Shown: one piece after another, positions 5,016 to 18,532 of the stretch
Layout of the letters: each line of letters starts with the position of its first letter
Position numbering within the stretch: the stretch's first letter is position 1
Assembly: GCF_003428155.1 (NCBI RefSeq)
Contig: NZ_QLIR01000010.1
Coordinates: 41,748 to 73,747 of the forward strand
Length of the DNA: 32,000 nt
Direction: 5' to 3'
Source: Fastidiosibacter lacustris
GTDB lineage: Bacteria; Pseudomonadota; Gammaproteobacteria; Francisellales; Francisellaceae
The notes under the pieces: model-generated
The model's input: only the letters and a program-made list of their open reading frames with translations
The model's database searches: none
What the model was told of the DNA's origin: nothing
Translations under genes and position numbers: made by a program

Positions 5016-6140
5016 ATGCAAAAAATATCTGCTTTTATCAAAGCTGAATACGGAGTTGTGCTACCGATTATTCTTTTTATTTTGATCAATTTTATTTTTA
5101 CAACGTTCAATCCACAAAATATTAGTCACTTTGTAACTGCAGTTACAACGTTTACTATATTTTGTGTAATGCTAATTTGTGCATTTAACGTCGTTAAACA
5201 TGCTGATCGACTTGCTCATAAATTTGGTGAGCCTTATGGAACGATTATTCTGACGCTTTCGGTCATCTCAATTGAAGTAGCGCTTATTATTACAATGATG
5301 CTCATAGGAAAAGGAGATTCTACACTTGCAAGGGATACGATGTTTGCTGTTATCATGATTGCCGTCAATGGGTTTGCAGGCTTAAGTCTACTAACTGGAG
5401 GAATCAAACACAACACTCAAATGTATAATATTGAAGGTGCAAGTATCTATATATCTTTATTAATTTTACTGCTTAGCATTTGTCTAATTTTACCCAATTA
5501 TACTGTTGCTACAGATGCAGGCACCTTCAATTTAAGTCAATCCATTATTGTCATTGTGGTATGTGTTATTTTGTACGCTAATTTTTTGGTGATGCAAACG
5601 ATTACTCACAGTGATTATTTTCAATTTTCGCTTGATCATAAAAGTCAACAAGGTGAGCAGCATAGCTCGATGAGATCGGTATGTTATCACGTTACTTTAC
5701 TTTTGATCGGTCTTATTGTGATGATTGCACTATCTAAAAATCTTGGAACTTTTTTAGAATATAGCATTCAAGAAGCAGGTCTCCCTAGTAAACTTGGTGG
5801 TTTTATCATCGCTCTTTTAGTGTTGACACCAGAAGGTGTCAGTGCCATTCAAGCTGCCTACAAGAATCAACTACAACGCTCGATTAACCTGTGTATGGGT
5901 TCAGCTGTTGCAACTATTTGCTTAACTGTGCCATCTGTAATTGTCATAAATTTAATTCTAGGGCACCCACTTATATTAGGTTTAAATAGTACATCCATCG
6001 TTATCTTAATGTTAACTTTTTTTATTAGCCTTATCACTTTTACCTCAAGGAGAACAAGTGTATTTAACGGCGTGGTACTATTAACTGTATTTGCCATTTA
6101 TTTTGCTTTAATTTTTGATACCGCTCAACCCTTTGCTTAA
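5016..6140 (+). CDS. chaA: Ca2+/H+ antiporter, CaCA family (ChaA-like)
   Basis: 374 aa, about 11 TM. Two alpha-repeat signatures (GTIILTLSVISIEVALI and ALLVLTPEGVSAIQAA) as in ChaA. Confidence 0.8.
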   Translation: MQKISAFIKAEYGVVLPIILFILINFIFTTFNPQNISHFVTAVTTFTIFCVMLICAFNVVKHADRLAHKFGEPYGTIILTLSVISIEVALIITMMLIGKGDSTLARDTMFAVIMIAVNGFAGLSLLTGGIKHNTQMYNIEGASIYISLLILLLSICLILPNYTVATDAGTFNLSQSIIVIVVCVILYANFLVMQTITHSDYFQFSLDHKSQQGEQHSSMRSVCYHVTLLLIGLIVMIALSKNLGTFLEYSIQEAGLPSKLGGFIIALLVLTPEGVSAIQAAYKNQLQRSINLCMGSAVATICLTVPSVIVINLILGHPLILGLNSTSIVILMLTFFISLITFTSRRTSVFNGVVLLTVFAIYFALIFDTAQPFA

Positions 6141-6244
6141 ACTATATACGCTTTACTTTGATTGGAGTATTTCAGCTATTCATGTCAAACGTATCAGTAT
6201 ATACTAACGTACGAATAAGCAACTATTTCTTAATAATGGTTATA

Positions 6245-6871
6245 ATGTCAAAAAATAAACATAGTAAAAGTAGTAAACGTTGGCTGGATGAACATCATAA
6301 CGATTATTATGTCAGCCAGTCCAAAAAAGAAGGTTTTCGCTCACGTGCAGCATACAAACTTATTGAATTACAAGAAAAGGATAAACTTTTTAAATTAGGT
6401 ATGCAAATTGTTGACCTAGGTGCAGCACCAGGAGGCTGGTCACAGGTATTAACAAGCTTTGTCGGTGAAAAAGGGAAAGTATTTGCACTTGATATTTTGG
6501 AAATGGACCCTTTACCAGATGTAGTGTTTATTCAAGGAGACTTCACCCAAGATGAGTCATACGAAGAACTTATGAACTTAATTAAAGGGCAAACTGTCGA
6601 TTGGGTGGTTTCAGATATGGCACCTAATATGAGTGGTAATCGAAGTACCGATCAAGCTAATGCTATGTATTTGGTTGAACTTGCATTAGATTTTGCACAA
6701 AGTGTATTAAAACCCAAAGGTAACTTTCTAGCTAAAGTCTTTCAAGGTGAGGGTTTTGAAATGTTTGTCAAAAACGTCCAACAACAATACCAAAAAGTTG
6801 TCATTCGTAAACCAGATGCTTCACGGACTCGCTCGCGTGAAGTTTATGTAATTGGATTTAATAAATGTTAA
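6245..6871 (+). CDS. rlmE: 23S rRNA (uridine-2'-O)-methyltransferase RlmE/FtsJ
   Basis: SAM motif VDLGAAPGGWSQV. The N-terminus MSKNKHSKSSKRWLDEHHNDYYV...GFRSRAAYKL is typical of RlmE. I start at the ATG at 6245 (209 aa, canonical length), not the track start at 6158, whose extra 29 residues look like non-coding read-through. Confidence 0.9.
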   Translation: MSKNKHSKSSKRWLDEHHNDYYVSQSKKEGFRSRAAYKLIELQEKDKLFKLGMQIVDLGAAPGGWSQVLTSFVGEKGKVFALDILEMDPLPDVVFIQGDFTQDESYEELMNLIKGQTVDWVVSDMAPNMSGNRSTDQANAMYLVELALDFAQSVLKPKGNFLAKVFQGEGFEMFVKNVQQQYQKVVIRKPDASRTRSREVYVIGFNKC

Positions 6872-6882
6872 GAGAAATATAG

Positions 6883-7497
6883 ATGGGTTACAGACTTTCA
6901 AAAATCTATACCAAAACAGGTGACAAAGGAAAAACCGCTTTATCAGATAATAAGCGGATTGATAAATGTACACCTATTATTGAAGTAATTGGTCAACTAG
7001 ATGAACTAAATGCCGCTATTGGTGTTGTGGTATCCTTCTCTCATCACAACGATATCAATATACAATTACAAAACATTCAACATCAGCTTTTTAATATTGG
7101 TGGTGAGTTATCACATCCTCAATTTAGCCAATTAGCGGCTGAGAATATAACAATACTTGAACACTACATAGATAACTTTAACAGCCATCTCACACCACTT
7201 AAAGAGTTTATCCTACCAGGTGGCTCTAAGGCTTCTGCACTTTGTCATCAAGCACGAACTATTGCCAGAAGAGTAGAGCGTTGTTATGTTGCACTTAGTA
7301 GAAATGAACCTAAATTTACAAATCCATTGATTTTACAATTTTTAAACCGCCTATCGGATTATTTATTTGTACTTGCACGTTTTCTTAACCTTAAGGATAA
7401 TCACAACGAAATACTATGGCAAAGTCATAGAAGTCAACCACAAGTAGATAATGAAATTATGTTAATTCCACAATCAAACGTCAAAAAGGACAAATAA
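6883..7497 (+). CDS. ATP:cob(I)alamin adenosyltransferase, PduO type
   Basis: 204 aa. The N-terminal KIYTKTGDKGKT ATP-binding motif and the ...LPGG...CHQARTIARRVER helix bundle are typical of the PduO/MMAB family. Confidence 0.85.
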   Translation: MGYRLSKIYTKTGDKGKTALSDNKRIDKCTPIIEVIGQLDELNAAIGVVVSFSHHNDINIQLQNIQHQLFNIGGELSHPQFSQLAAENITILEHYIDNFNSHLTPLKEFILPGGSKASALCHQARTIARRVERCYVALSRNEPKFTNPLILQFLNRLSDYLFVLARFLNLKDNHNEILWQSHRSQPQVDNEIMLIPQSNVKKDK

Positions 7498-8870
7498 TGA
7501 AAATCATTATTTTAGGTGCAGGACAAGTCGGAAGCTCTCTAGCAAAAAACTTACAAAAAGATCACAATATCAGTGTGGTTGATGATAGACCTGAGCGCTT
7601 ACGCCACATCCAAAACCATTTTGATGTTAAAACCGTATGCGGCTCTGCCTCTCATCCTAACGTCCTTGAAGAGGCAGGTGCTAATGATGCAGATATGATT
7701 ATTGCTGTCACCAATAATGATGAAGTTAATATTGTAGCTTGCCAAATTGCATATAGCTTATTTAAAATTCCAACGAAAATCGCACGTCTTCGCAATAAAA
7801 ACTATGCACGTTATCCGCAAATTTTCAATAATGATAATATTCCTATAGATATGATCATCAATCCTTCTGAGCTCGTTACTCAACGCTTAGTACGTTTAGT
7901 GGAACACCCTGGAAGCTTCCAGATCGTTGACTTTGCCAATGGGCGCATACAACTTGCAGGTAGTGAAATCTCTGAAGACTCCCCTTTGCATGGTATGAGT
8001 ATTAAAGAATTTCGTCAAGAACTGCCAGATATTGACGCACGTATTGTTGCCATTTATCGCAAAAAACAGAATATTCTCATTTCAGCTGATACTATATTAC
8101 AGAAGTATGATGACGTTTTCTTCATTGCTGAACGTATTAACATTCCTGCAATTTTGCGTGAGTTTCAACCACACCAAACTGCCTGCCGCAAGCTGTTTAT
8201 TGCAGGAGGTGGAAACATTGGTATGGGACTTGCAAAAAAACTAGAAAATGATTATTTAGTTAAAATTATTGAAAACAATTATGAAAAATGCCATCTTGCT
8301 GCCGAGACTTTAAATAATACAACCGTTTTAGCAGGAGATGCTTCTGACGCTGAACTTTTAAATGCCGAAAGCATTGATGATACTGACTTGTTTTGTGCTG
8401 TTACCAATGATGATGAAGCAAATATTATGTCTGCAATGTTGGCAAAAAAAATGGGAGCTAAAAGCACAATTGCATTAGTCAATAGCCTAAGTTATGCTGA
8501 ATTGGTTGATGAAACACAGACGATTGATCGAGCCATCTCGCCCCAGCGCATCACTATTGGTGTTATTCAAACTTATTTGCGTAAAGGAGACATGCTCAAT
8601 ATTTACTCACTTTATGGCGGTCAAGCTGAAGCAATGGAAATCGTTGTTCATGGTACAGTAGATAGCTCACCAATTGTTGGCAAAGCTATTAATGAACTGA
8701 ACTTACCAAAGTCGATTATTATTGGTGGAATTGTGCGTGAGGATAATATCCTGATTGCCCATGACCATTATGTAATCAAATCAGGTGATCATGTGGTTGT
8801 GATCATCACAGATATGGATCATATCCGCACTATTGAAAAACTCTTTCAGGTGTTACCTGTTTTTCTATAA
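7497..8870 (+). CDS. trkA: Trk potassium uptake system NAD-binding subunit TrkA
   Basis: 457 aa. Two Rossmann repeats (MKIIILGAGQVGSSLA and LFIAGGGNIGMGLA), each followed by an RCK_C-like segment. TAATG overlap with the upstream gene. Confidence 0.92.
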   Translation: MKIIILGAGQVGSSLAKNLQKDHNISVVDDRPERLRHIQNHFDVKTVCGSASHPNVLEEAGANDADMIIAVTNNDEVNIVACQIAYSLFKIPTKIARLRNKNYARYPQIFNNDNIPIDMIINPSELVTQRLVRLVEHPGSFQIVDFANGRIQLAGSEISEDSPLHGMSIKEFRQELPDIDARIVAIYRKKQNILISADTILQKYDDVFFIAERINIPAILREFQPHQTACRKLFIAGGGNIGMGLAKKLENDYLVKIIENNYEKCHLAAETLNNTTVLAGDASDAELLNAESIDDTDLFCAVTNDDEANIMSAMLAKKMGAKSTIALVNSLSYAELVDETQTIDRAISPQRITIGVIQTYLRKGDMLNIYSLYGGQAEAMEIVVHGTVDSSPIVGKAINELNLPKSIIIGGIVREDNILIAHDHYVIKSGDHVVVIITDMDHIRTIEKLFQVLPVFL

Positions 8871-10968: not shown

Positions 10969-11388
10969 ATGATCTGGCAAAACATAAAACTCAGTATCAA
11001 AAGTATTCTTGTTGCCAGTATGATTTTACTTATTATAGGCTGTGCTACAACTGCAAAATACAGGGCCATTTTAGATCAATGGCATGAACAGTCTATTGAT
11101 GATTTTGTTCACATGTGGGGTTATCCAAATAATACACTTAAACTTGAGGATAATAAGACAGCTTATGTCTATAGTGACAAACAAATTGTCAGTACCCCTC
11201 TTAACCAAATGCCAACAAATATTACAACTGTTCAAAATGGAAATAATACAACCATAATTTCAACACCTGGTGCGATTATTGGAGGTCAAACCTATTCCTT
11301 ATCCTGTACAACGTGGATTGTATTTGATAACAAAACAAAAAAAATTGTCAATACAACCTTTCGAGGTAATAACTGTATTGCTTATTAA
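10969..11388 (+). CDS. Hypothetical lipoprotein
   Basis: 139 aa. Signal peptide with lipobox LLIIG|C (MIWQNIKLSIKSILVASMILLIIGCATT). Asn/Thr-rich mature part with two C-terminal Cys. No family recognised. Confidence 0.6.
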   Translation: MIWQNIKLSIKSILVASMILLIIGCATTAKYRAILDQWHEQSIDDFVHMWGYPNNTLKLEDNKTAYVYSDKQIVSTPLNQMPTNITTVQNGNNTTIISTPGAIIGGQTYSLSCTTWIVFDNKTKKIVNTTFRGNNCIAY

Positions 11389-11666: not shown

Positions 11667-12452
11667 ATGAAAGAAGACAATGTTATTTTATTAGTTAGTA
11701 CAAATCAAGATGATATAATAGCGCTAGAAAATTTACTTCAACGTTATTTGTTCCAAACAATAGCATGCTCATCGGGCGCTAATGCCCTAGAAATCTTGAG
11801 CACTCACAAAAATATTAAACTTGTTATATTGGACGTCTTATTACCAGATATGTATGGTATCGAAGTTTGCAAAAACATTCGTGAACGCAATCCTAATATG
11901 GCTATTATTTTTGTTTCAAAAATAACAGATGCTACAGAAGTTGTTTTATGCTTTGAAGCAGGAGCTGATGACTATATTGAAACTCCTTATAATCAGCATA
12001 TACTTATGGCACGCATTAAATCAAAACTCCGTGACCGCAATACACATCATACACCTTATGCAATCACTGGTTCTGTCAAAATTGATGAGCTTAACATTAA
12101 TGATTATATGCAAATTCAATTTGGTAAATGGGCTTACTATCCGCGTAAATCTTTGGTAACCCATCCAGATCAAGATGAAATTTACTTAACTGATAAAGAA
12201 GGTGCTCTGCTTAAGTTATTACTTTCTGATCCAAGCAAAACTTTTATGCGCGAAGAAATTGCCAAATATTTGAACCTTAACATAAAAGAAAGCATGATAC
12301 GTGATGTTAATATCCACGTTCATCGTTTACGTAATAAACTGACTCAAGGACACAACTCAAGCTCACCGATTAAGGCTGTGCGTTCTCAAGGTTATACACT
12401 TGATTCTTATTTAACTTATATCTATGACGGCAAAGAGGTTTCCTGCTTATAA
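11667..12452 (+). CDS. Atypical OmpR/PhoB-class response regulator (degenerate receiver + winged-helix DNA-binding domain); orphan
   Basis: 261 aa. REC-like N-terminus with the phospho-acceptor context KLVILDVLLPDMYG and FVSK. The conserved Lys is replaced (GADDYIETPY versus consensus DDYLTKPF) and the acidic pair is displaced (LLVSTNQDD). The C-terminal wHTH is LTDKEGALLKLLL....FMREEI....DVNIHVHRLRNKL....KAVRSQGYTL. GAGAGAG lies upstream of the ATG. Confidence 0.8.
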   Translation: MKEDNVILLVSTNQDDIIALENLLQRYLFQTIACSSGANALEILSTHKNIKLVILDVLLPDMYGIEVCKNIRERNPNMAIIFVSKITDATEVVLCFEAGADDYIETPYNQHILMARIKSKLRDRNTHHTPYAITGSVKIDELNINDYMQIQFGKWAYYPRKSLVTHPDQDEIYLTDKEGALLKLLLSDPSKTFMREEIAKYLNLNIKESMIRDVNIHVHRLRNKLTQGHNSSSPIKAVRSQGYTLDSYLTYIYDGKEVSCL

Positions 12453-12802: not shown

Positions 12803-14986
12803 TTAAAACCCACTTTCTTTGACCCATAAAATAAGGATTTGTTGCCATAAACTTGCAGCTAAAGACTTTCTTGCAATATTAATAAAGACTTTACCTCGAA
12901 TGACGTGGGACAAATTATATTGAGGTGAAGCCGTTGGCTTTAATAATAAAAGGAAAATGCTTTCCTGAGGAGTCAGTTTTCCTTCATTGTCAGGCTTTAC
13001 TGCAATGCTACCACCAAAGATTGAAGCGTGATATGTGCTAAGAGGAACTGCTTTATGAATATAGCTAAGGTTAGCCTTATTTTGATTTTGTGACAGTAAT
13101 AGACTTGCATGGGAGCTTATGATTTGCGTAATAATCACAGGAGTTTTAGTAAAATCGATGTTTTCAGGTACGAAATATCCGCTTTGATTATTGGTGAGTT
13201 TATCGTATTTTTTGGTATCGATATAAGCATGAAGTTGAATTTGATCTTTATTGACAAGCATCATTAGTGCTTGTTTGGCTTTTAGCCATGCTCCAATTTG
13301 TAAATCTTCAGATAATGACTCTACAACCCCATCGAATGGTGCATAAAAGTACAATTTTTCCTGTTCTTTTTGTAATTGATTAAGCTCTGTTTGAGTTTGA
13401 CTGATTTGAGTCATAAGAACTTGTTGTTGTTCAAGCTGAGTTTGAAAATGGACGATATTACGTTGTTGCCACTTAAGTTGTATAAGCTTTTGTTTAGTTT
13501 GTACAATTTTAAAATTTAACTTATCAGATTCTAGAACTGCTAAAAGCTCACCTTTCTTGATTGTTTGTCCTTTTTTAACGTATATATTGACGACTTTTGC
13601 ACCTATCTCAGTGTAGAGGGTTTGTGTTTGATATGACATGGTAGCAGGTAAGGAAATTTGGCTTTGCCAAGGGGTGAAAAAAATCAATATGAGTAACAAT
13701 AGGATAGAAGTTAAAATAATAGTATGCTTATTAAGTTTAATTCTGCTTTTAATGGTCCACCAAACCTTTAATTCACGATAAATAGGATGTAAGATAAAAT
13801 AAATGATTTCAATTGCAAAAAGGATAATCCCTAGTGCTTTAAAAAATAGGTGATAAACCATTAAAGCAATACCAAAAAATAGAAAAAAACGATAAATCCA
13901 ATTTAGAATTGCATAAGTGATGAGGATGTGTTGCCTAGAGATATTAAAATATTCTGGCATCGGTGCATTTAGTCCAAAGAGTATTTCTCTGATTTTCCAT
14001 CTTGTTAGAGCAAAACTTCTGGTTTGAAGGTTTCGCATACTCAAAATATCAGATAGAACATGATAGCCATCAAACCTTAAAAAAGGACTGATATTGATCA
14101 AATAGGTTGTCATTAAGCTATATGTTGCAAGAAAGAAACAGATACTTTTAAGTGCGCCTTCTGGAAATAGAAGCCATGCCCACAAAGCAAAAATAGCTAT
14201 ATAAGTTTCTGTAATAACGCCAGCTAGTGCAATCGTAATACGTTCTTTCGGGTCGTTGACTTTCCAGCTTTCCCCTGTGTCAGTGTAAAGCATAGGGAAC
14301 ATAACAAGAAAGGCAACTCCCATTACAGGCACGTTAAGAGCAAATTTTTTACACATTAAAGCATGACCTAGTTCATGGCAGCTTTTGGCAAAAATTAACG
14401 CAATGGCATAAAGTAAAATATATTCAATTGAAAATAAAGCAAAAAAAGTATTGGTAAACTGATCCCATTCGCGCAAAGTAAAGATAAGTGCAAATATTCC
14501 AAGAAATGTCATGATAAAAGCAAACGTTTTACCAAGCATAAAGCGAAAATAAGGATAGATTCTATCTAAAAACTTATTAGGTTTAACAAGTGGAACTCGA
14601 AAGAATAAATAATTTTTAACAAGCCATAAAAACCAGTTACTCTTTTTAAGAGATTGAATTTTATTGATACTTTTTAATATGGGGTAGTTTTGCTCAATTA
14701 GGCAGTTTTGTGATAAAAACTTAAGCATTTGACTTAAATCTTCTTCAGAAATTTGTGCTAAGGATTTACTTTTTATATCTTTAATAAACTCAGCAGGTGG
14801 GACGCTTTGCCAATAGTGTAAAATTTCATGTTCTTTCCAACCTAAATGAAAAAAGCGATTATTTAATGTGTCTTGAACAATCCAAGTTGGGCTGTTATTA
14901 AAATCCATACCTCCTTTCTCTAAGGTAACTCCTAAGCGAAGGGGTGGAAGTATTTCTGGTAGTTCTGTCATATTTTGCATTTGCAT
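12803..14986 (-). CDS. Fusion protein: PqqD/RRE-like N-terminal domain + site-2 protease (peptidase M50) membrane core + C-terminal HlyD-type membrane-fusion (periplasmic adaptor) domain
   Basis: Residue numbers follow the 732-aa track ORF. HELGH is at residues 209-213 (nt 14363-14377, verified as CAT GAA CTA GGT CAT). The second S2P motif NISPFLRFDG is at 303-312. About 8-9 TM helices. After the last TM comes a lipoyl-like/coiled-coil adaptor pattern (EIGAKVVNIYVKKGQTIKKGELLAVLES...coiled coil...YFYAPFDGVV). The track start at 15001 is TTG; I prefer the ATG at 14986, which lies 4 nt after the upstream stop and behind GGGTGG. Confidence 0.85.
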   Translation of the reverse strand: MQMQNMTELPEILPPLRLGVTLEKGGMDFNNSPTWIVQDTLNNRFFHLGWKEHEILHYWQSVPPAEFIKDIKSKSLAQISEEDLSQMLKFLSQNCLIEQNYPILKSINKIQSLKKSNWFLWLVKNYLFFRVPLVKPNKFLDRIYPYFRFMLGKTFAFIMTFLGIFALIFTLREWDQFTNTFFALFSIEYILLYAIALIFAKSCHELGHALMCKKFALNVPVMGVAFLVMFPMLYTDTGESWKVNDPKERITIALAGVITETYIAIFALWAWLLFPEGALKSICFFLATYSLMTTYLINISPFLRFDGYHVLSDILSMRNLQTRSFALTRWKIREILFGLNAPMPEYFNISRQHILITYAILNWIYRFFLFFGIALMVYHLFFKALGIILFAIEIIYFILHPIYRELKVWWTIKSRIKLNKHTIILTSILLLLILIFFTPWQSQISLPATMSYQTQTLYTEIGAKVVNIYVKKGQTIKKGELLAVLESDKLNFKIVQTKQKLIQLKWQQRNIVHFQTQLEQQQVLMTQISQTQTELNQLQKEQEKLYFYAPFDGVVESLSEDLQIGAWLKAKQALMMLVNKDQIQLHAYIDTKKYDKLTNNQSGYFVPENIDFTKTPVIITQIISSHASLLLSQNQNKANLSYIHKAVPLSTYHASIFGGSIAVKPDNEGKLTPQESIFLLLLKPTASPQYNLSHVIRGKVFINIARKSLAASLWQQILILWVKESGF

Positions 14987-14990
14987 AGTG

Positions 14991-16331
14991 TTACCACCCA
15001 AAGAATTGTCTTAGCGTTGTGATCGGTTTTCTAAATAAGTAATAGAATAAACTTACATTTTCCCCCATCAACTTGGCGGTTCCTTGACTACCAATTTTAG
15101 GAAGTGATTGATTGGAATCAAGGTAAGCAATGACTTGATAAGCAAGCACTTGAGAAGGTGTAATAGTAGCTTCGAAACTTGAATATTCAATTATGCCATA
15201 AACAGGGTTAAGTGGATCAGCATTTAAAAATAGCTTAACTTTATCACCCTTTTGAAAGTTAATTGCATCAGATACAGGTAACCAAATTTCGATTTCGATT
15301 TGATTAGGAATAGCAACTTGCATAACGTTTTCACCCGTGACAACTGGTTTACCAATCCATTGATTGGGAGTGTCAATAATAGCGATACCATCTATTGTGC
15401 TTCTTACATAAGATTCTTCAATCAAATGACGCGTATAATTAACCTCTAATGCTTTTTCTTGCATTTGAGCTTGTAAAACTTGAATTTCAGCACGTTTTTC
15501 TATGTCCTGGTAACTACTTTGAACAGCTGTTTTGTATTTTGCTGTTGCAGTGGCAAGTTCTTTTTGAGCAAGCTCATTAGCATTGACTAAATCACGCTTA
15601 TCCATATCAAACAAAATTTCGCCTCTACGCACATATTGCTCAGGCATGACAGCAATATTTTCAATTACGCCTTCCATTGGTACAGTAATAATTGCAGGAT
15701 CCTTGGCAATAATAGAAGCAGGTGCTAAAACGCTTTGTGGTACACGAATGAACATAGCACTCAGAATGATAACAATGAACAACCAAACAAGGCGTCTTCG
15801 TTTGCTTTTGAAGTAATATTTAATTCTGCCCAACAAGCCATTTGGTTTGCTTAAGTGTGACCATGCTTGATTGTATGAAAGAGAAATCCAATCGAATTGT
15901 TTTAGTTCATTTTCATTTAACATATCTGGGTTTAATAGAATGACCCCACCAATAATATCTTTATTAAGGTTGCGAAAGAAATAGATATGAGCATACTTTG
16001 CAAGTGGTTCAAGCCATCTTGTTGCAACAGCTTCTGCTACATCATCAATATTTAGAATCAGTAGATCTTTACTTTGATCATAATGGGTAATAATTTTGCT
16101 AATAAATTGATTAGCTGAAATTTGATAAGGACTGGTACCGTTGAGTTGGGTGATACCTGAGACACTCAAAATTTTTATGTTTTTATTTTGCCAAGAACTC
16201 CACACAATAGCACGTTGATATTCAGCAACAAGTTTGGTTTGGTGCGCGATAAAAAAAGCAAGTTCATTTAAAGTGTGGATTTCACGCATTTCTTGTTGTA
16301 AAGAGAGTAAATTAGCTAATACATCTTTCAT
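14991..16331 (-). CDS. HlyD-family membrane-fusion protein with an N-terminal cytoplasmic GAF-like domain
   Basis: 446 aa. About 165 N-terminal soluble residues end in a GAF-like tail (IIGGVILLNPDMLNENELKQFDWISLSYNQAWSHL). One TM (LVWLFIVIILSAMFI). Then an adaptor pattern (VPMEGVIENIAVMPEQYVRRGEILFDMD..coiled coil..VRSTIDGIAI). The ATG lies 2 nt after the upstream stop, with GAGGG as SD. Confidence 0.8.
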   Translation of the reverse strand: MKDVLANLLSLQQEMREIHTLNELAFFIAHQTKLVAEYQRAIVWSSWQNKNIKILSVSGITQLNGTSPYQISANQFISKIITHYDQSKDLLILNIDDVAEAVATRWLEPLAKYAHIYFFRNLNKDIIGGVILLNPDMLNENELKQFDWISLSYNQAWSHLSKPNGLLGRIKYYFKSKRRRLVWLFIVIILSAMFIRVPQSVLAPASIIAKDPAIITVPMEGVIENIAVMPEQYVRRGEILFDMDKRDLVNANELAQKELATATAKYKTAVQSSYQDIEKRAEIQVLQAQMQEKALEVNYTRHLIEESYVRSTIDGIAIIDTPNQWIGKPVVTGENVMQVAIPNQIEIEIWLPVSDAINFQKGDKVKLFLNADPLNPVYGIIEYSSFEATITPSQVLAYQVIAYLDSNQSLPKIGSQGTAKLMGENVSLFYYLFRKPITTLRQFFGW

Positions 16332-16333
16332 TT

Positions 16334-17131
16334 TTAACCCTCTTTTCTATCAGTCACTTTATTTATTTTAAAATGAGCAATTCCACTCATACCTGAGAAA
16401 AGCATATCCGTGTTGAGAGTGGATGATTCATCATTTTTAACAAGTTTGCCATAAACTAAAATTGATTGGCTTGCTGGATCTATTTGACTAACAATTTTAA
16501 TAACTTGACCAGTAAGTTTTATATTAGGTAGCTCCTCTAACATTAAACTAAAGTTCGTCCCAATATGAATTTTGCTTAACCATGAAGACGGTATGTACAT
16601 TTTGACTTCAAGCTCTCGATTATCAACGATTTCAAGCAATGGATCATCTGTTTTAACCATTTCATTTTCTTGAGCGGATTGATGAACGACTTCACCGTTA
16701 TAAGGTGCAATAATTTGGCATTGACGTTGCTGGAATAAAATGATATCGAGGTCGGCTTTAGCAATCTCAGACTGACTTTTTGCTTTTGCCAAATCCATTT
16801 TACTGGCTGAGTTTAGACGCATAAGTTCAGTTGTACTTTGTAATAAAGCATCAGCCGCCTCAAGCTCAGCGCGAGCACGTAGCATTTTGAGGTCAATTTC
16901 TTCACAATCAAATTGTAAAAGTACCTCTCCTTTTTTAAAGACATCTCCTGGTCGAAAATAAATTTTTTGAATAGTCCCTGTCATTGGACTAGAAAGAGAA
17001 GCTTTGTTAATTGGGAAAACAGAGGCATATGTGCTTTGTTCGCCGGCATCGGTAAGTTGTTGAAAAGGGGTTATGCCATAAGAAAAACTAAGCAACATAA
17101 ACAAGGAGATAAATAAACTGCATGATTTCAT
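16334..17131 (-). CDS. Exported HlyD-type membrane-fusion / biotin-lipoyl-like adaptor protein
   Basis: 265 aa. N-terminal signal or anchor MKSCSLFISLFMLLSFSYG. SPMTGTIQKIYFRPGDVFKKGEVLLQFD, then a coiled-coil hairpin, then IIAPYNGEVV, the canonical MFP order. Good SD (AGGAAG) 8 nt upstream. Confidence 0.8.
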   Translation of the reverse strand: MKSCSLFISLFMLLSFSYGITPFQQLTDAGEQSTYASVFPINKASLSSPMTGTIQKIYFRPGDVFKKGEVLLQFDCEEIDLKMLRARAELEAADALLQSTTELMRLNSASKMDLAKAKSQSEIAKADLDIILFQQRQCQIIAPYNGEVVHQSAQENEMVKTDDPLLEIVDNRELEVKMYIPSSWLSKIHIGTNFSLMLEELPNIKLTGQVIKIVSQIDPASQSILVYGKLVKNDESSTLNTDMLFSGMSGIAHFKINKVTDRKEG

Positions 17132-17175
17132 AATCGTGACTTCCTTTTATTTGAGGCAGTTTTAATATGATTATT

Positions 17176-17204
17176 AGTTTAGATCAGCGTTTTTATTTGT
17201 ACAA
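17176..17204 (-). promoter_or_regulatory. Candidate sigma70 promoter for the three-gene adaptor/protease operon
   Basis: The minus strand reads TTGTAC-17 nt-TAAACT about 45 nt upstream of the 17131 start. The -35 sits inside a palindrome, TTGTACAA. Sequence match only. Confidence 0.2.
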
Positions 17205-17342
17205 TAGAAAATAACTTTTTGTTATGTAAGTATTTAGCGATAATCATACATATAGGCGCATATTTAATACGTTTTTCTCTTAAGATGGAGTATGCTAGTA
17301 TGAGTTCTAACAAATGTCGATAATGCAAAATAAGGATAAATA

Positions 17343-17786
17343 ATGCAAGTTAAAGGTTTCAGTTTAGCAACACGTGTCATTCATATGATTGGCTTTGAAA
17401 TATTTGCTATTGTTATTTTCGCACCTTTAGCTGCTTTTATATTAGATAAGGGAATAATAGAAATAGGTGCTTTAGGCATATTCACTTCGCTTATTGCTAT
17501 GTTTTGGAACTTTATTTATAACTGGGTGTTTGACGTTTGGGAAGTGCGACTTGGCAAGGATAGGTTTAACCGTAGCGTGATAACAAGATGTATACATGTA
17601 TTATTGTTTGAATTAGGTCTTTTTATTGTCACCATTCCACTTGTTGCATTTTGGTTAGATATGACACTTTTGCAAGCGTTTTTAATTGATATTGCTTTTG
17701 TGGCTTTCTTTTTAATCTATGCTTTTGTTTATAACTGGATATTCGATCTTCTATACTTAAAACTTGTACGCAAAGTAAGCATTTAA
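17343..17786 (+). CDS. PACE-family (AceI-like, tandem bacterial transmembrane pair) efflux transporter
   Basis: 147 aa, 4 TM in two repeats. RVIHMIGFEIFAIVIF with the TM1 Glu, FWNFIYNWVFD, RCIHVLLFELGLFIV and FVYNWIFD closely parallel the AceI repeat motifs. SD AAGGA upstream. Confidence 0.8.
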   Translation: MQVKGFSLATRVIHMIGFEIFAIVIFAPLAAFILDKGIIEIGALGIFTSLIAMFWNFIYNWVFDVWEVRLGKDRFNRSVITRCIHVLLFELGLFIVTIPLVAFWLDMTLLQAFLIDIAFVAFFLIYAFVYNWIFDLLYLKLVRKVSI

Positions 17787-17863: not shown

Positions 17864-18532
17864 ATGATGCGAATTTTAGTTGTAGAAGACGATATTATGT
17901 TAGGTGAAGGAATAGTTGAAGGCTTAAAGCAGCATAACTACGCTGTAGATTTGATGCAAGATGGGAAAATGGCAGAAATGGCATTAGATACTGAACCGTA
18001 TGATGCAGTTGTTATGGATATTGGCTTACCTTTTAAAGATGGCATTTCGATTGTAAAAAGCATACGTGCTAAGGGAAACTCAGTTCCAGTTTTACTATTA
18101 ACCGCGCGTGATGCAATCGATGATCGTGTGCGTGGATTAGATTCAGGCGCTGATGATTATTTAACAAAACCCTTTGATTTATCAGAGCTTTTAGCAAGAA
18201 TGCGTGCATTGGTACGTCGTTCAGCTGGACGGAGCGATCCTAAAATTAAGTTTGAAGAGTTAGAGCTTGATCCTGCAGCACAAACTGTAACAGTAAGCGG
18301 TGAGTTTGTAAAACTTTCAAGAAGAGAATTTGCGTTACTTGAATGCTTGTTAGAAAATACAGGAAAGGTGGTTTCTAAAACGAAGTTGCTTGAAAAATTA
18401 TATGGTTGGGATGAAGAAGTAGATTCTAATACCCTAGAAGTACATATTCATAATGTACGTAAGAAAATTCAGAATAAATATATAAAAACGTTACGAGGCG
18501 TTGGTTATATTGTACAAAAACCAACAGCATAA
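17864..18532 (+). CDS. Canonical OmpR-family response regulator (QseB/PmrA/BasR-like); no adjacent histidine kinase
   Basis: 222 aa. All receiver signatures are present (VVEDD, AVVMDIGLP, LLLTAR, ADDYLTKPF), with a wHTH (LSRREFALLECLL...LEVHIHNVRKKI...TLRGVGYIV). The start could be the second ATG at 17867. Confidence 0.9.
   Translation: MMRILVVEDDIMLGEGIVEGLKQHNYAVDLMQDGKMAEMALDTEPYDAVVMDIGLPFKDGISIVKSIRAKGNSVPVLLLTARDAIDDRVRGLDSGADDYLTKPFDLSELLARMRALVRRSAGRSDPKIKFEELELDPAAQTVTVSGEFVKLSRREFALLECLLENTGKVVSKTKLLEKLYGWDEEVDSNTLEVHIHNVRKKIQNKYIKTLRGVGYIVQKPTA

Follow-up and report, generated by a model that had tools for sequence, protein, structure and literature searches.

A conserved operon of HlyD-type adaptors and a site-2 protease as a candidate core of TolC-dependent export of giant LEPR-XLL adhesins

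HlyD-type adaptors are known from type I secretion systems such as HlyBD-TolC and LapBCE, from exporters built around a peptidase-containing ATP-binding cassette (ABC) transporter (PCAT), and from MacAB-TolC, EmrAB-TolC and resistance-nodulation-division (RND) efflux pumps. Here we describe a three-gene operon, A-B-C, of the gammaproteobacterium Fastidiosibacter lacustris, in which each product carries an adaptor of this type and the third protein is fused to an M50 site-2 protease. The stretch analysed, called the window below, comprises 32,000 nucleotides (nt) of contig NZ_QLIR01000010.1 (positions 41,748 to 73,747). On balance, and by a modest preference, we favour the reading that the three proteins supply the inner-membrane and periplasmic parts at the core of a conserved system that exports and processes proteins through TolC, usually a giant adhesin bearing the LEPR-XLL motif at its N-terminus.

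By analogy, the nearest functional counterpart of such a system would be a tripartite exporter of the type I or PCAT kind. The proposed system shares with type I systems the HlyD-type adaptors and, in relatives of the operon, a gene for a TolC-family channel next to that of a giant repeat adhesin; with PCATs it would share a leader-cleaving protease built into the inner-membrane component, cleavage being predicted here; and B, like HlyD, has a cytoplasmic N-terminal domain ahead of its transmembrane (TM) helix. The ABC transporter that defines type I systems is missing, however, as is any other known pump, and the protease is an M50 intramembrane metalloprotease with a domain resembling the RRE, the recognition element of ribosomally synthesised and post-translationally modified peptide (RiPP) pathways, rather than the C39 cysteine peptidase of PCATs. 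Moreover, the giant carries its LEPR-XLL motif at the N-terminus, whereas classical type I substrates have a C-terminal signal, and three different adaptor paralogues occur where type I systems have one. The periplasmic parts of B and C likewise resemble those of the MacAB, EmrAB and RND pumps in their lipoyl, α-hairpin and β-barrel parts, but a MacB, EmrB, RND or major facilitator superfamily (MFS) partner is neither present nor conserved, and one adaptor is fused to a protease (C) and another to a GAF-like domain (B).

For the protease half, the closest described proteins are the RRE-site-2 protease (RRE-S2P) peptidases of RiPP biosynthesis, such as daptide MpaP and YydH-type enzymes. In MpaP, an RRE is fused N-terminally to a site-2 protease that removes a leader peptide bearing a conserved N-terminal motif (bioRxiv 10.1101/2023.03.08.531785). 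C has the same N-terminal RRE/PqqD-type domain and M50 core with HExxH and NxxPxxxxDG motifs, but adds a TM helix and a periplasmic adaptor of ~290 amino acids (aa), is unlinked to RiPP-modifying enzymes, and has linked candidate substrates of 2,000-10,000 aa. The LapA/LapG/LapD system also combines a giant repeat adhesin possessing a conserved N-terminal module with a protease, a TolC-like channel and an inner-membrane protein whose sensor domain lies in the cytoplasm. LapG, however, is a periplasmic cysteine protease and LapD a cyclic di-GMP receptor, neither family being seen here; Lap adhesins leave via an ABC transporter, and the parts of the present system are unrelated to them. What is new is the inner-membrane platform, the TolC/adaptor duct being already known.

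Domain architecture of the A-B-C operon

The initial annotation had described three translationally coupled minus-strand genes, and the list of open reading frames (ORFs) and the sequence bear this out, including both junctions. The genes, their junctions and the domains and motifs of B and C are as follows.

16334..17131, minus strand: gene A, 265 aa, from the ORF list
14991..16331, minus strand: gene B, 446 aa, from the ORF list
12803..14986, minus strand: gene C, 727 aa from its ATG start; the ORF list extends it to a TTG at 15001
16329..16336, minus strand: A/B junction TAA-AA-ATG, reading GAGGGT-TAA-AA-ATG, with GAGGG 7 nt upstream of the ATG
14984..14993, minus strand: B/C junction TAA-CACT-ATG, reading TGG-TAA-CACT-ATG
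15837..16331, minus strand: B residues 1-165, divergent GAF-like domain, from homologues and the fold order of the AlphaFold2 (AF2) model
15726..15803, minus strand: TM anchor of B, KRRRLVWLFIVIILSAMFIRVPQSVL, from hydropathy and sequence
14702..14944, minus strand: C residues 15-95, putative leader-binding RRE/PqqD-like domain, predicted cytoplasmic, from AF2 topology and the NF041824 match
13754..14635, minus strand: C residues 118-411, polytopic M50 membrane core, from PF02163, hydropathy and AF2 helices
14363..14377, minus strand: HELGH zinc-binding/catalytic motif of C, H204, E205 and H208 in 727-aa numbering, invariant in 50 homologues
14066..14095, minus strand: NISPFLRFDG, second M50 motif of C (N298, P301, D306, G307), following the NxxPxxxxDG pattern with the third zinc ligand
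12806..13729, minus strand: C residues 420-727, TM anchor (420-440) and periplasmic adaptor (lipoyl, α-hairpin, β-barrel), from HlyD_D23, HlyD_3 and hydropathy

A 732-aa version of C arises from the in-frame TTG at 15001, which overlaps the stop codon of B. Since a database protein 100% identical to C begins at the ATG at 14986 (727 aa), and since this start gives the 4-nt TAA-CACT-ATG spacing, we favour ATG 14986. The catalytic residues first proposed as H209 and E210 are correct in the 732-aa frame and correspond to H204 and E205 here.

All three proteins match the adaptor families HlyD_3 and HlyD_D23 above the Pfam cut-offs (63.6 and 58.4 bits for A, 38.4 and 38.3 for B, 34.3 and 37 for C), in agreement with the HlyD-type module originally proposed for each. 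A, a short periplasmic adaptor, also matches TIGR01730 (RND_mfp) with 112.5 bits against a cut-off of 94.9; it has a hydrophobic N-terminal signal or anchor at residues 3-21, as judged by hydropathy, and no lipobox. Foldseek comparison of AF2 models of B and C with MacA, EmrA and MexA gave E values of 1e-13 to 1e-17, the adaptor of B reaching 3.6e-17 against the three and that of C 1.2e-13 against MacA. Indeed, the hairpin helices are present in both models, which have the lipoyl, α-hairpin and β-barrel architecture.

In B, a GAF-like domain of alpha/beta type, at residues 1-160 of the AF2 model and placed in the cytoplasm, precedes a single TM helix and the adaptor (mean predicted local distance difference test (pLDDT) score of the model, 88). 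We place the GAF-like domain in the cytoplasm because basic residues (KRRR) lie N-terminal to the TM helix. The GAF-like module proposed in the initial annotation stands through relatives of B and not through the window protein itself, whose N-terminal domain has no significant Pfam match, GAF, GAF_2 and GAF_3 included. Among 36 B homologues, Pfam GAF matches six and GAF_2 three (best E value 4.7e-6), and the B protein of a sister subfamily, described below, contains a clear GAF domain (PF01590, E 5e-13). A profile search of the domain against the PDB gave a weak match to a phytochrome GAF domain (E 2.4), and the order of helices and strands in the AF2 model is consistent with a GAF fold. The label 'GAF-like' is supported by homology through these homologues, the domain itself being divergent.

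In C, an RRE/PqqD-like domain comes first and is followed by the M50 site-2 protease core, a single TM helix and the adaptor (AF2 pLDDT 85). The first of these domains had no place in the initial description; its AF2 model contains strands at residues 20-27, 33-39 and 44-48 followed by helices at 50-57, 64-74 and 81-93. The best curated match of C is NCBIfam NF041824 (daptide RRE-S2P peptidase), which covers residues 36-400 with an E value of 7.6e-39; the score of 133.9 bits against a cut-off of 300 marks C as a homologue and not an equivalog member. A homologue from the sister subfamily aligns from C residue 35 onwards and itself matches PqqD (PF05402) over residues 37-101 with 28.7 bits against 23.4.

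The intact M50 core that was first read from the sequence is supported by Peptidase_M50 (PF02163; 31.0 bits against a gathering cut-off of 27.2) and by both motifs, which are present and invariant in 50 homologues. HELGH (residues 204-208) comes right after a TM segment at 181-199. In the second motif, N298, D306 and G307 are invariant in both of our alignments (16 and 50 homologues) and P301 is invariant among the 16. By its motifs, C is an intact M50 protease, with predicted proteolytic activity.

Conserved gene neighbourhoods of the trio

An exhaustive profile search showed that the C family contains 5,749 cluster representatives at 50% identity (E≤1e-30), of which the top 150 are all full-length, at about 700-740 aa; a word-indexed search with C returned more than 2,000 full-length matches. 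A scan of one genome per species gave at least 592 relatives, and we analysed the best-scoring 80 loci with up to 10 kb on each side, 38 of them being well flanked (at least 9 kb on both sides). These 80 loci come from Alpha-, Beta-, Gamma- and Zetaproteobacteria, Nitrospirota, Desulfobacterota and Scalindua, and A-B-C synteny thus spans at least four phyla (Pseudomonadota, Nitrospirota, Desulfobacterota and Planctomycetota). The cassette occurs in Pseudomonas, Chromobacterium, Azospirillum, Cupriavidus, Nitrospira and SAR11-type Pelagibacteraceae, and on IncF plasmids of E. coli and Citrobacter. Of the 80 loci, 73 have B immediately before C, and the two genes are neighbours in 35 of the 38 well-flanked ones; an A homologue is found in 68 loci, directly upstream of B in 59.

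Clustering of flanking ORFs in the 80 loci revealed no conserved pump beside the trio. An ABC-ATPase-like ORF lies within 10 kb in nine loci only, mostly small and at no conserved position, so that homologues do not sit beside conventional pumps, the arrangement that the initial annotation had named as the mark of a degenerate efflux operon. Its view of an assembly centred on an intramembrane protease rather than a transporter is supported, and in this survey the trio is conserved and is mostly accompanied by a TolC-like gene and a giant adhesin. As it had also anticipated, automated labels are generic ('HlyD family efflux transporter periplasmic adaptor subunit', 'putative peptide zinc metalloprotease'). 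We rejected LivG-like ATPases, GNAT proteins, phage tail-collar proteins and an AAA protein as core parts, each being limited to few loci. One to three small 'tail fiber protein' (phage tail-collar-like) genes adjoin the system in several Enterobacteriaceae, Chromobacterium and Pseudomonas loci, for example at 14128-16235 of a Kosakonia plasmid (L088; numbers of this form denote individual loci) and, as cluster 6, in L048, L051, L052, L059, L067 and L071.

The first conserved partner is a TolC-like lipoprotein of ~520 aa with a Pfam OEP domain, encoded beside the trio in 54 of the 80 loci and 28 of the 38 well-flanked ones. The second is a giant or LEPR gene, found in 34 of the 38, where giant ORFs running off the flank were counted by length and cluster membership, their N-terminus not always being visible. 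The giants are repeat adhesins of 2,000-10,600 aa with Ig-like, cadherin or VCBS repeats, and their genes precede the TolC-like gene, follow C or separate A from B (the last in L049 and L059). Pfam found no HemolysinCabind/RTX repeats in the three giants scanned. At the N-terminus, 28 sequences from distant phyla share a short basic stretch followed by …LLALEPRIMFDGAAVATAAE (ALEPRxMFDGAAxATA), a very highly conserved motif that corresponds to the LEPR-XLL (LEPR-8K) signature NCBIfam NF012209, scoring 16.6 bits against a cut-off of 17 for a 24-position model. Read from the sequences, this leader appears unlike a classical Sec signal because it has no long hydrophobic core, and it is usually followed by DUF4347 (Pfam). 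Many giants also share a C-terminal 'LxEQL' stretch (…G[RK]xxLxEQL[RK]…) about 25-35 aa from the C-terminus (for example L049 2499-8594, L059 2196-8621, L079 1127-8584 and L043 804-7919), which could be a second targeting or anchoring signal.

Complete sets of these genes occur on plasmids. A RefSeq Kosakonia plasmid encodes an Ig-like giant, a TolC family protein, an adaptor, a HlyD protein and a second HlyD protein that is the M50 fusion. IncF plasmids of E. coli and Citrobacter freundii encode every member of the system, namely A, B, C, a TolC family protein and a giant of 4,459 aa named 'Ig-like domain-containing protein', as at positions 1-16082 of L089 (NZ_CP146666.1, the IncFIA/FIB plasmid of E. 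coli MS 115-1) and also in L090; the giant begins MTTIKNRRLRPRAHRFALESRQLFDGAALAE… and continues into a DUF4347-like region. A C gene of the IncF type at ≥99% identity was found in 24 of the 5,426 complete E. coli genomes, on a plasmid in most cases, and plasmid C-like proteins annotated mpaP are among the matches.

A sister subfamily, ~26% identical to C, has operons in Methylosinus, Pontibrevibacter and Thalassospira that encode a 'LEPR-XLL domain-containing protein' (4,033 to 10,603 aa), a DUF3467 protein, GAF-HlyD, PqqD-M50-HlyD and a short adaptor. It is RefSeq itself that gives the neighbouring giant its LEPR-XLL name, and the Methylosinus giant has the N-terminus …FDTLEPRVLLNADVLA. The small DUF3467 gene always comes after the giant gene. 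A TolC-family gene is annotated in two of four sister loci (Methylosinus, Thalassospira), the R. johnstonii locus meeting the start of its record so that part of its gene set is visible. In three of the four, a gene for a SecA-like ATPase follows PqqD-M50-HlyD directly:

L091 (Methylosinus pMSC49a), 6114-8030: sister SecA-like gene
L093, 11022-13007: sister SecA-like gene
L095, 3579-5410: sister SecA-like gene

These ATPases contain SecA_DEAD (E 1e-103), SecA_PP_bind and P-loop_SecA domains and are labelled in RefSeq 'prepilin peptidase' or 'DEAD/DEAH box helicase', or are unannotated. The gene neighbourhoods of both clades thus tie two diverged RRE-M50-adaptor lineages to LEPR-XLL giants, A/B-type adaptors and TolC.

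A proposed export route and its alternatives

Since most homologous loci add TolC-like and LEPR-XLL/DUF4347 genes, the usual substrate would be the giant protein, and an outer-membrane channel would be part of the system. From the gene structure, domain content, conservation, synteny and purifying selection (see below), we infer a route in which a leader is bound and cleaved, a ring forms and the cargo is exported. The leader, at the N-terminus of the cargo and with its basic stretch and ALEPRxMFDGAAxATA motif, would be bound in the cytoplasm by the RRE/PqqD-like domain of C and cut at the membrane by the M50 site, in parallel with leader removal by MpaP in daptide biosynthesis. The adaptor domains of A, B and C may build a mixed MacA/HlyD-like ring whose α-hairpins dock on the TolC-family channel, and the GAF-like domain of B may act as a cytoplasmic sensor or gate. 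Candidate sources of energy are a SecA-type ATPase, suggested because the sister clade encodes one in cis, and folding of the repeats outside the cell; where no SecA-like gene is found in cis, housekeeping SecA could serve as the motor, with folding of calcium-binding repeats as another possible contributor. Only tentatively, and at somewhat less than an even chance, do we go further and propose a distinct class of Gram-negative secretion system, in which an adaptor/TolC duct stands on an RRE-guided site-2 protease and LEPR-leader giants are exported by the power of a SecA-type motor or of folding.

Several points weigh against such an export system. Queries and hidden Markov models (HMMs) detected no TolC-like gene either in the window or in the adjoining stretch of contig covered on one of its sides, and the window contains no cargo gene, no LEPR motif in any frame and no DUF4347, one side of the contig being negative too. 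The RRE assignment of C is probable, leaning on predicted topology and on remote or transitive homology: Pfam PqqD matches one of 20 C homologues only (E 0.15), a profile search of the domain against the PDB gave no match, and the hhalign comparison with PqqD, although in the same register as the sister protein, is not significant (E 0.009). Co-localisation with the trio does not show that the giant is a substrate of the protease. No M50 protease is known to conduct proteins, whereas the proposed route would have a chain of 2,000-10,000 aa cross the inner membrane. A full-text literature search found no publication or experiment on any member or on the M50-HlyD architecture, in line with the initial statement that no member had been characterised.

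A different use of the same parts would be retention and release. Here the giant would be exported otherwise, for example by a distant type I system, and A-B-C with TolC would hold its N-terminus until the M50 site cuts the LEPR region to release or mature it, so that the module would do for the giant what LapG and LapD do for LapA, the signal being sensed by the GAF-like domain of B. The conserved N-terminal modules (LEPR, DUF4347) and C-terminal LxEQL stretch of the giants recall an N-terminal retention module and a C-terminal secretion signal, B bears a cytoplasmic domain of sensor type, and window-type loci encode no motor. Yet no type I ABC transporter is conserved near the giants, the three that were scanned lack RTX repeats, and the sister clade has a dedicated SecA-like ATPase, which speaks for translocation. 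The predicted cytoplasmic location of the RRE-like domain of C also suits a leader that is captured ahead of export better than one that is cleaved once export has taken place, and we consider retention unlikely.

Another reading starts from the window, which has no giant cargo gene. In the reduced lineage, the trio might mature and export a small leader-bearing peptide of RiPP or bacteriocin type, C acting as leader peptidase like YydH or MpaP; a peptide cargo was also among the initial proposals, and the N-terminal half of C is indeed most similar to RiPP RRE-S2P leader peptidases, as seen from NF041824 and from the mpaP labels of plasmid matches. Most homologous loci, however, add a giant LEPR-XLL/DUF4347 adhesin instead. 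The NF041824 score is far under its cut-off, and neither the window nor related loci contain daptide modification genes or short precursor ORFs. Near the operon and in the window we found no modification enzyme, no conserved small ORF and no LEPR-like motif in any frame, and the small ORFs beside the operon encode no leader-like peptide. Close relatives, namely Fangia and a metagenome contig whose C is 61% identical, keep the TolC-like gene, and Fangia keeps the giant too. A peptide cargo therefore appears quite unlikely.

The adaptor domains are most like those of MacA, EmrA and MexA, and RefSeq labels the proteins as efflux adaptors, so that the operon could be imagined as a degenerate or split efflux system serving an ABC (MacB-type), RND or MFS pump encoded elsewhere, the M50 domain being incidental. 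This is very unlikely, given 80 loci across phyla with no conserved pump beside the trio, M50 motifs invariant in 50 homologues in a fusion maintained in thousands of lineages, and conserved neighbours that encode a giant adhesin and a TolC-like protein in place of a pump. Least probable of all is regulated intramembrane proteolysis, an initial proposal and the classical mode of signalling by M50 proteases such as RseP and SpoIVFB, in which C would cleave a membrane regulator on envelope cues sensed via the adaptors or the GAF-like domain and feed the two OmpR-family response regulators that flank the operon with no kinase nearby: gene neighbourhoods give it no support, those regulators are not conserved beside the trio elsewhere, no sigma or anti-sigma factor gene is linked, and the adaptor hairpins and the linked TolC-like gene of relatives point to a duct and not a sensor. 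TolC-dependent export of giant adhesins remains our preferred account of A-B-C.

The reduced locus of the window and wider significance

The closest named relatives of the window are Cysteiniphilum, Facilibium and Fangia. Within the bacterial family of the window, Fangia encodes a TolC-like protein, A, B and C, followed by a LEPR/DUF4347 giant, and the TolC-like gene is kept in nearer and remoter relatives from the family, L082 (the metagenome contig with 61% identity in C), L002 and L086. The window and Cysteiniphilum (L001) keep A-B-C only, with a PACE gene divergent upstream in both, and the three-gene layout is a rare reduced form common to these two and not the typical architecture. If the proposed system operates there, channel and cargo must be encoded elsewhere or be different in the window genome and Cysteiniphilum. 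A protein search seeded with the Fangia N-terminus, aimed at a LEPR/DUF4347 protein of the window's genome, returned only short, distant DUF4347 fragments. The A-B-C core is under purifying selection: ratios of non-synonymous to synonymous substitution rates (dN/dS) relative to Cysteiniphilum are 0.14 for A and 0.10 for B, dS being saturated for C. Because the genes are intact and these ratios are low, we regard the trio as a functional core with unlinked partners and not as a decaying remnant.

A Pfam scan of every sizeable ORF in the window showed, besides the trio, housekeeping genes, an EamA transporter, the divergent PACE gene and two OmpR-family response regulators, and no ABC, RND or MFS exporter; together with the negative TolC-like searches, this upholds the earlier view that the window holds neither a pump nor an outer-membrane factor for the adaptors. 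The PACE gene lies at 17343-17786 on the plus strand, divergent from A, and its counterpart in Cysteiniphilum halobium (L001 7127-7555, 69% identity) is likewise adjacent to the trio. We rejected it as a partner of the system since it adjoins the trio only in the window and Cysteiniphilum among the 80 loci; the pairing is lineage-specific. One further feature lies between A and the PACE gene.

17132..17342, no strand assigned: divergent intergenic region, containing the AAGGAAG ribosome-binding site of A

The operon promoter presumably sits in this region; we assigned none, because a promoter and terminator scan gave sites at no more than the chance number. An Rfam scan yielded zero matches, and a search of plasmid DNA found nothing resembling the window operon.

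The two response regulators flank the operon at 11667-12452 and 17864-18532 (both plus strand), of which one is PmrA/QseB-like and the other, 261 aa long, is atypical. The window has no recognisable histidine kinase gene, and neither regulator is kept beside the trio in other genomes. Right after mnmG, at 10969-11388 (plus strand), lies a gene for a predicted 139-aa lipoprotein (…LLIIGCATT…) with no Pfam or NCBIfam match. In Cysteiniphilum halobium (L001 1193-5644, minus strand), the strand opposite to the trio encodes, ~2 kb upstream, a 1,483-aa RCC1-repeat protein, which lacks a LEPR motif and so probably has no part in the system.

For the window itself, the lesson is a narrower one, that of a reduced core held under selection with its partners unlinked. 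If the proposed system is real, a very common cassette would constitute a separate route by which giant adhesins are placed on the cell surface with no known pump. It would also extend the roles of M50 proteases and RREs beyond signalling and RiPP maturation, with a site-2 protease serving as a leader peptidase, and the orphan LEPR-XLL and DUF4347 signatures, along with thousands of 'HlyD family' annotations, would gain a function. The plasmid copies in E. coli offer a tractable host in which the idea is directly testable.

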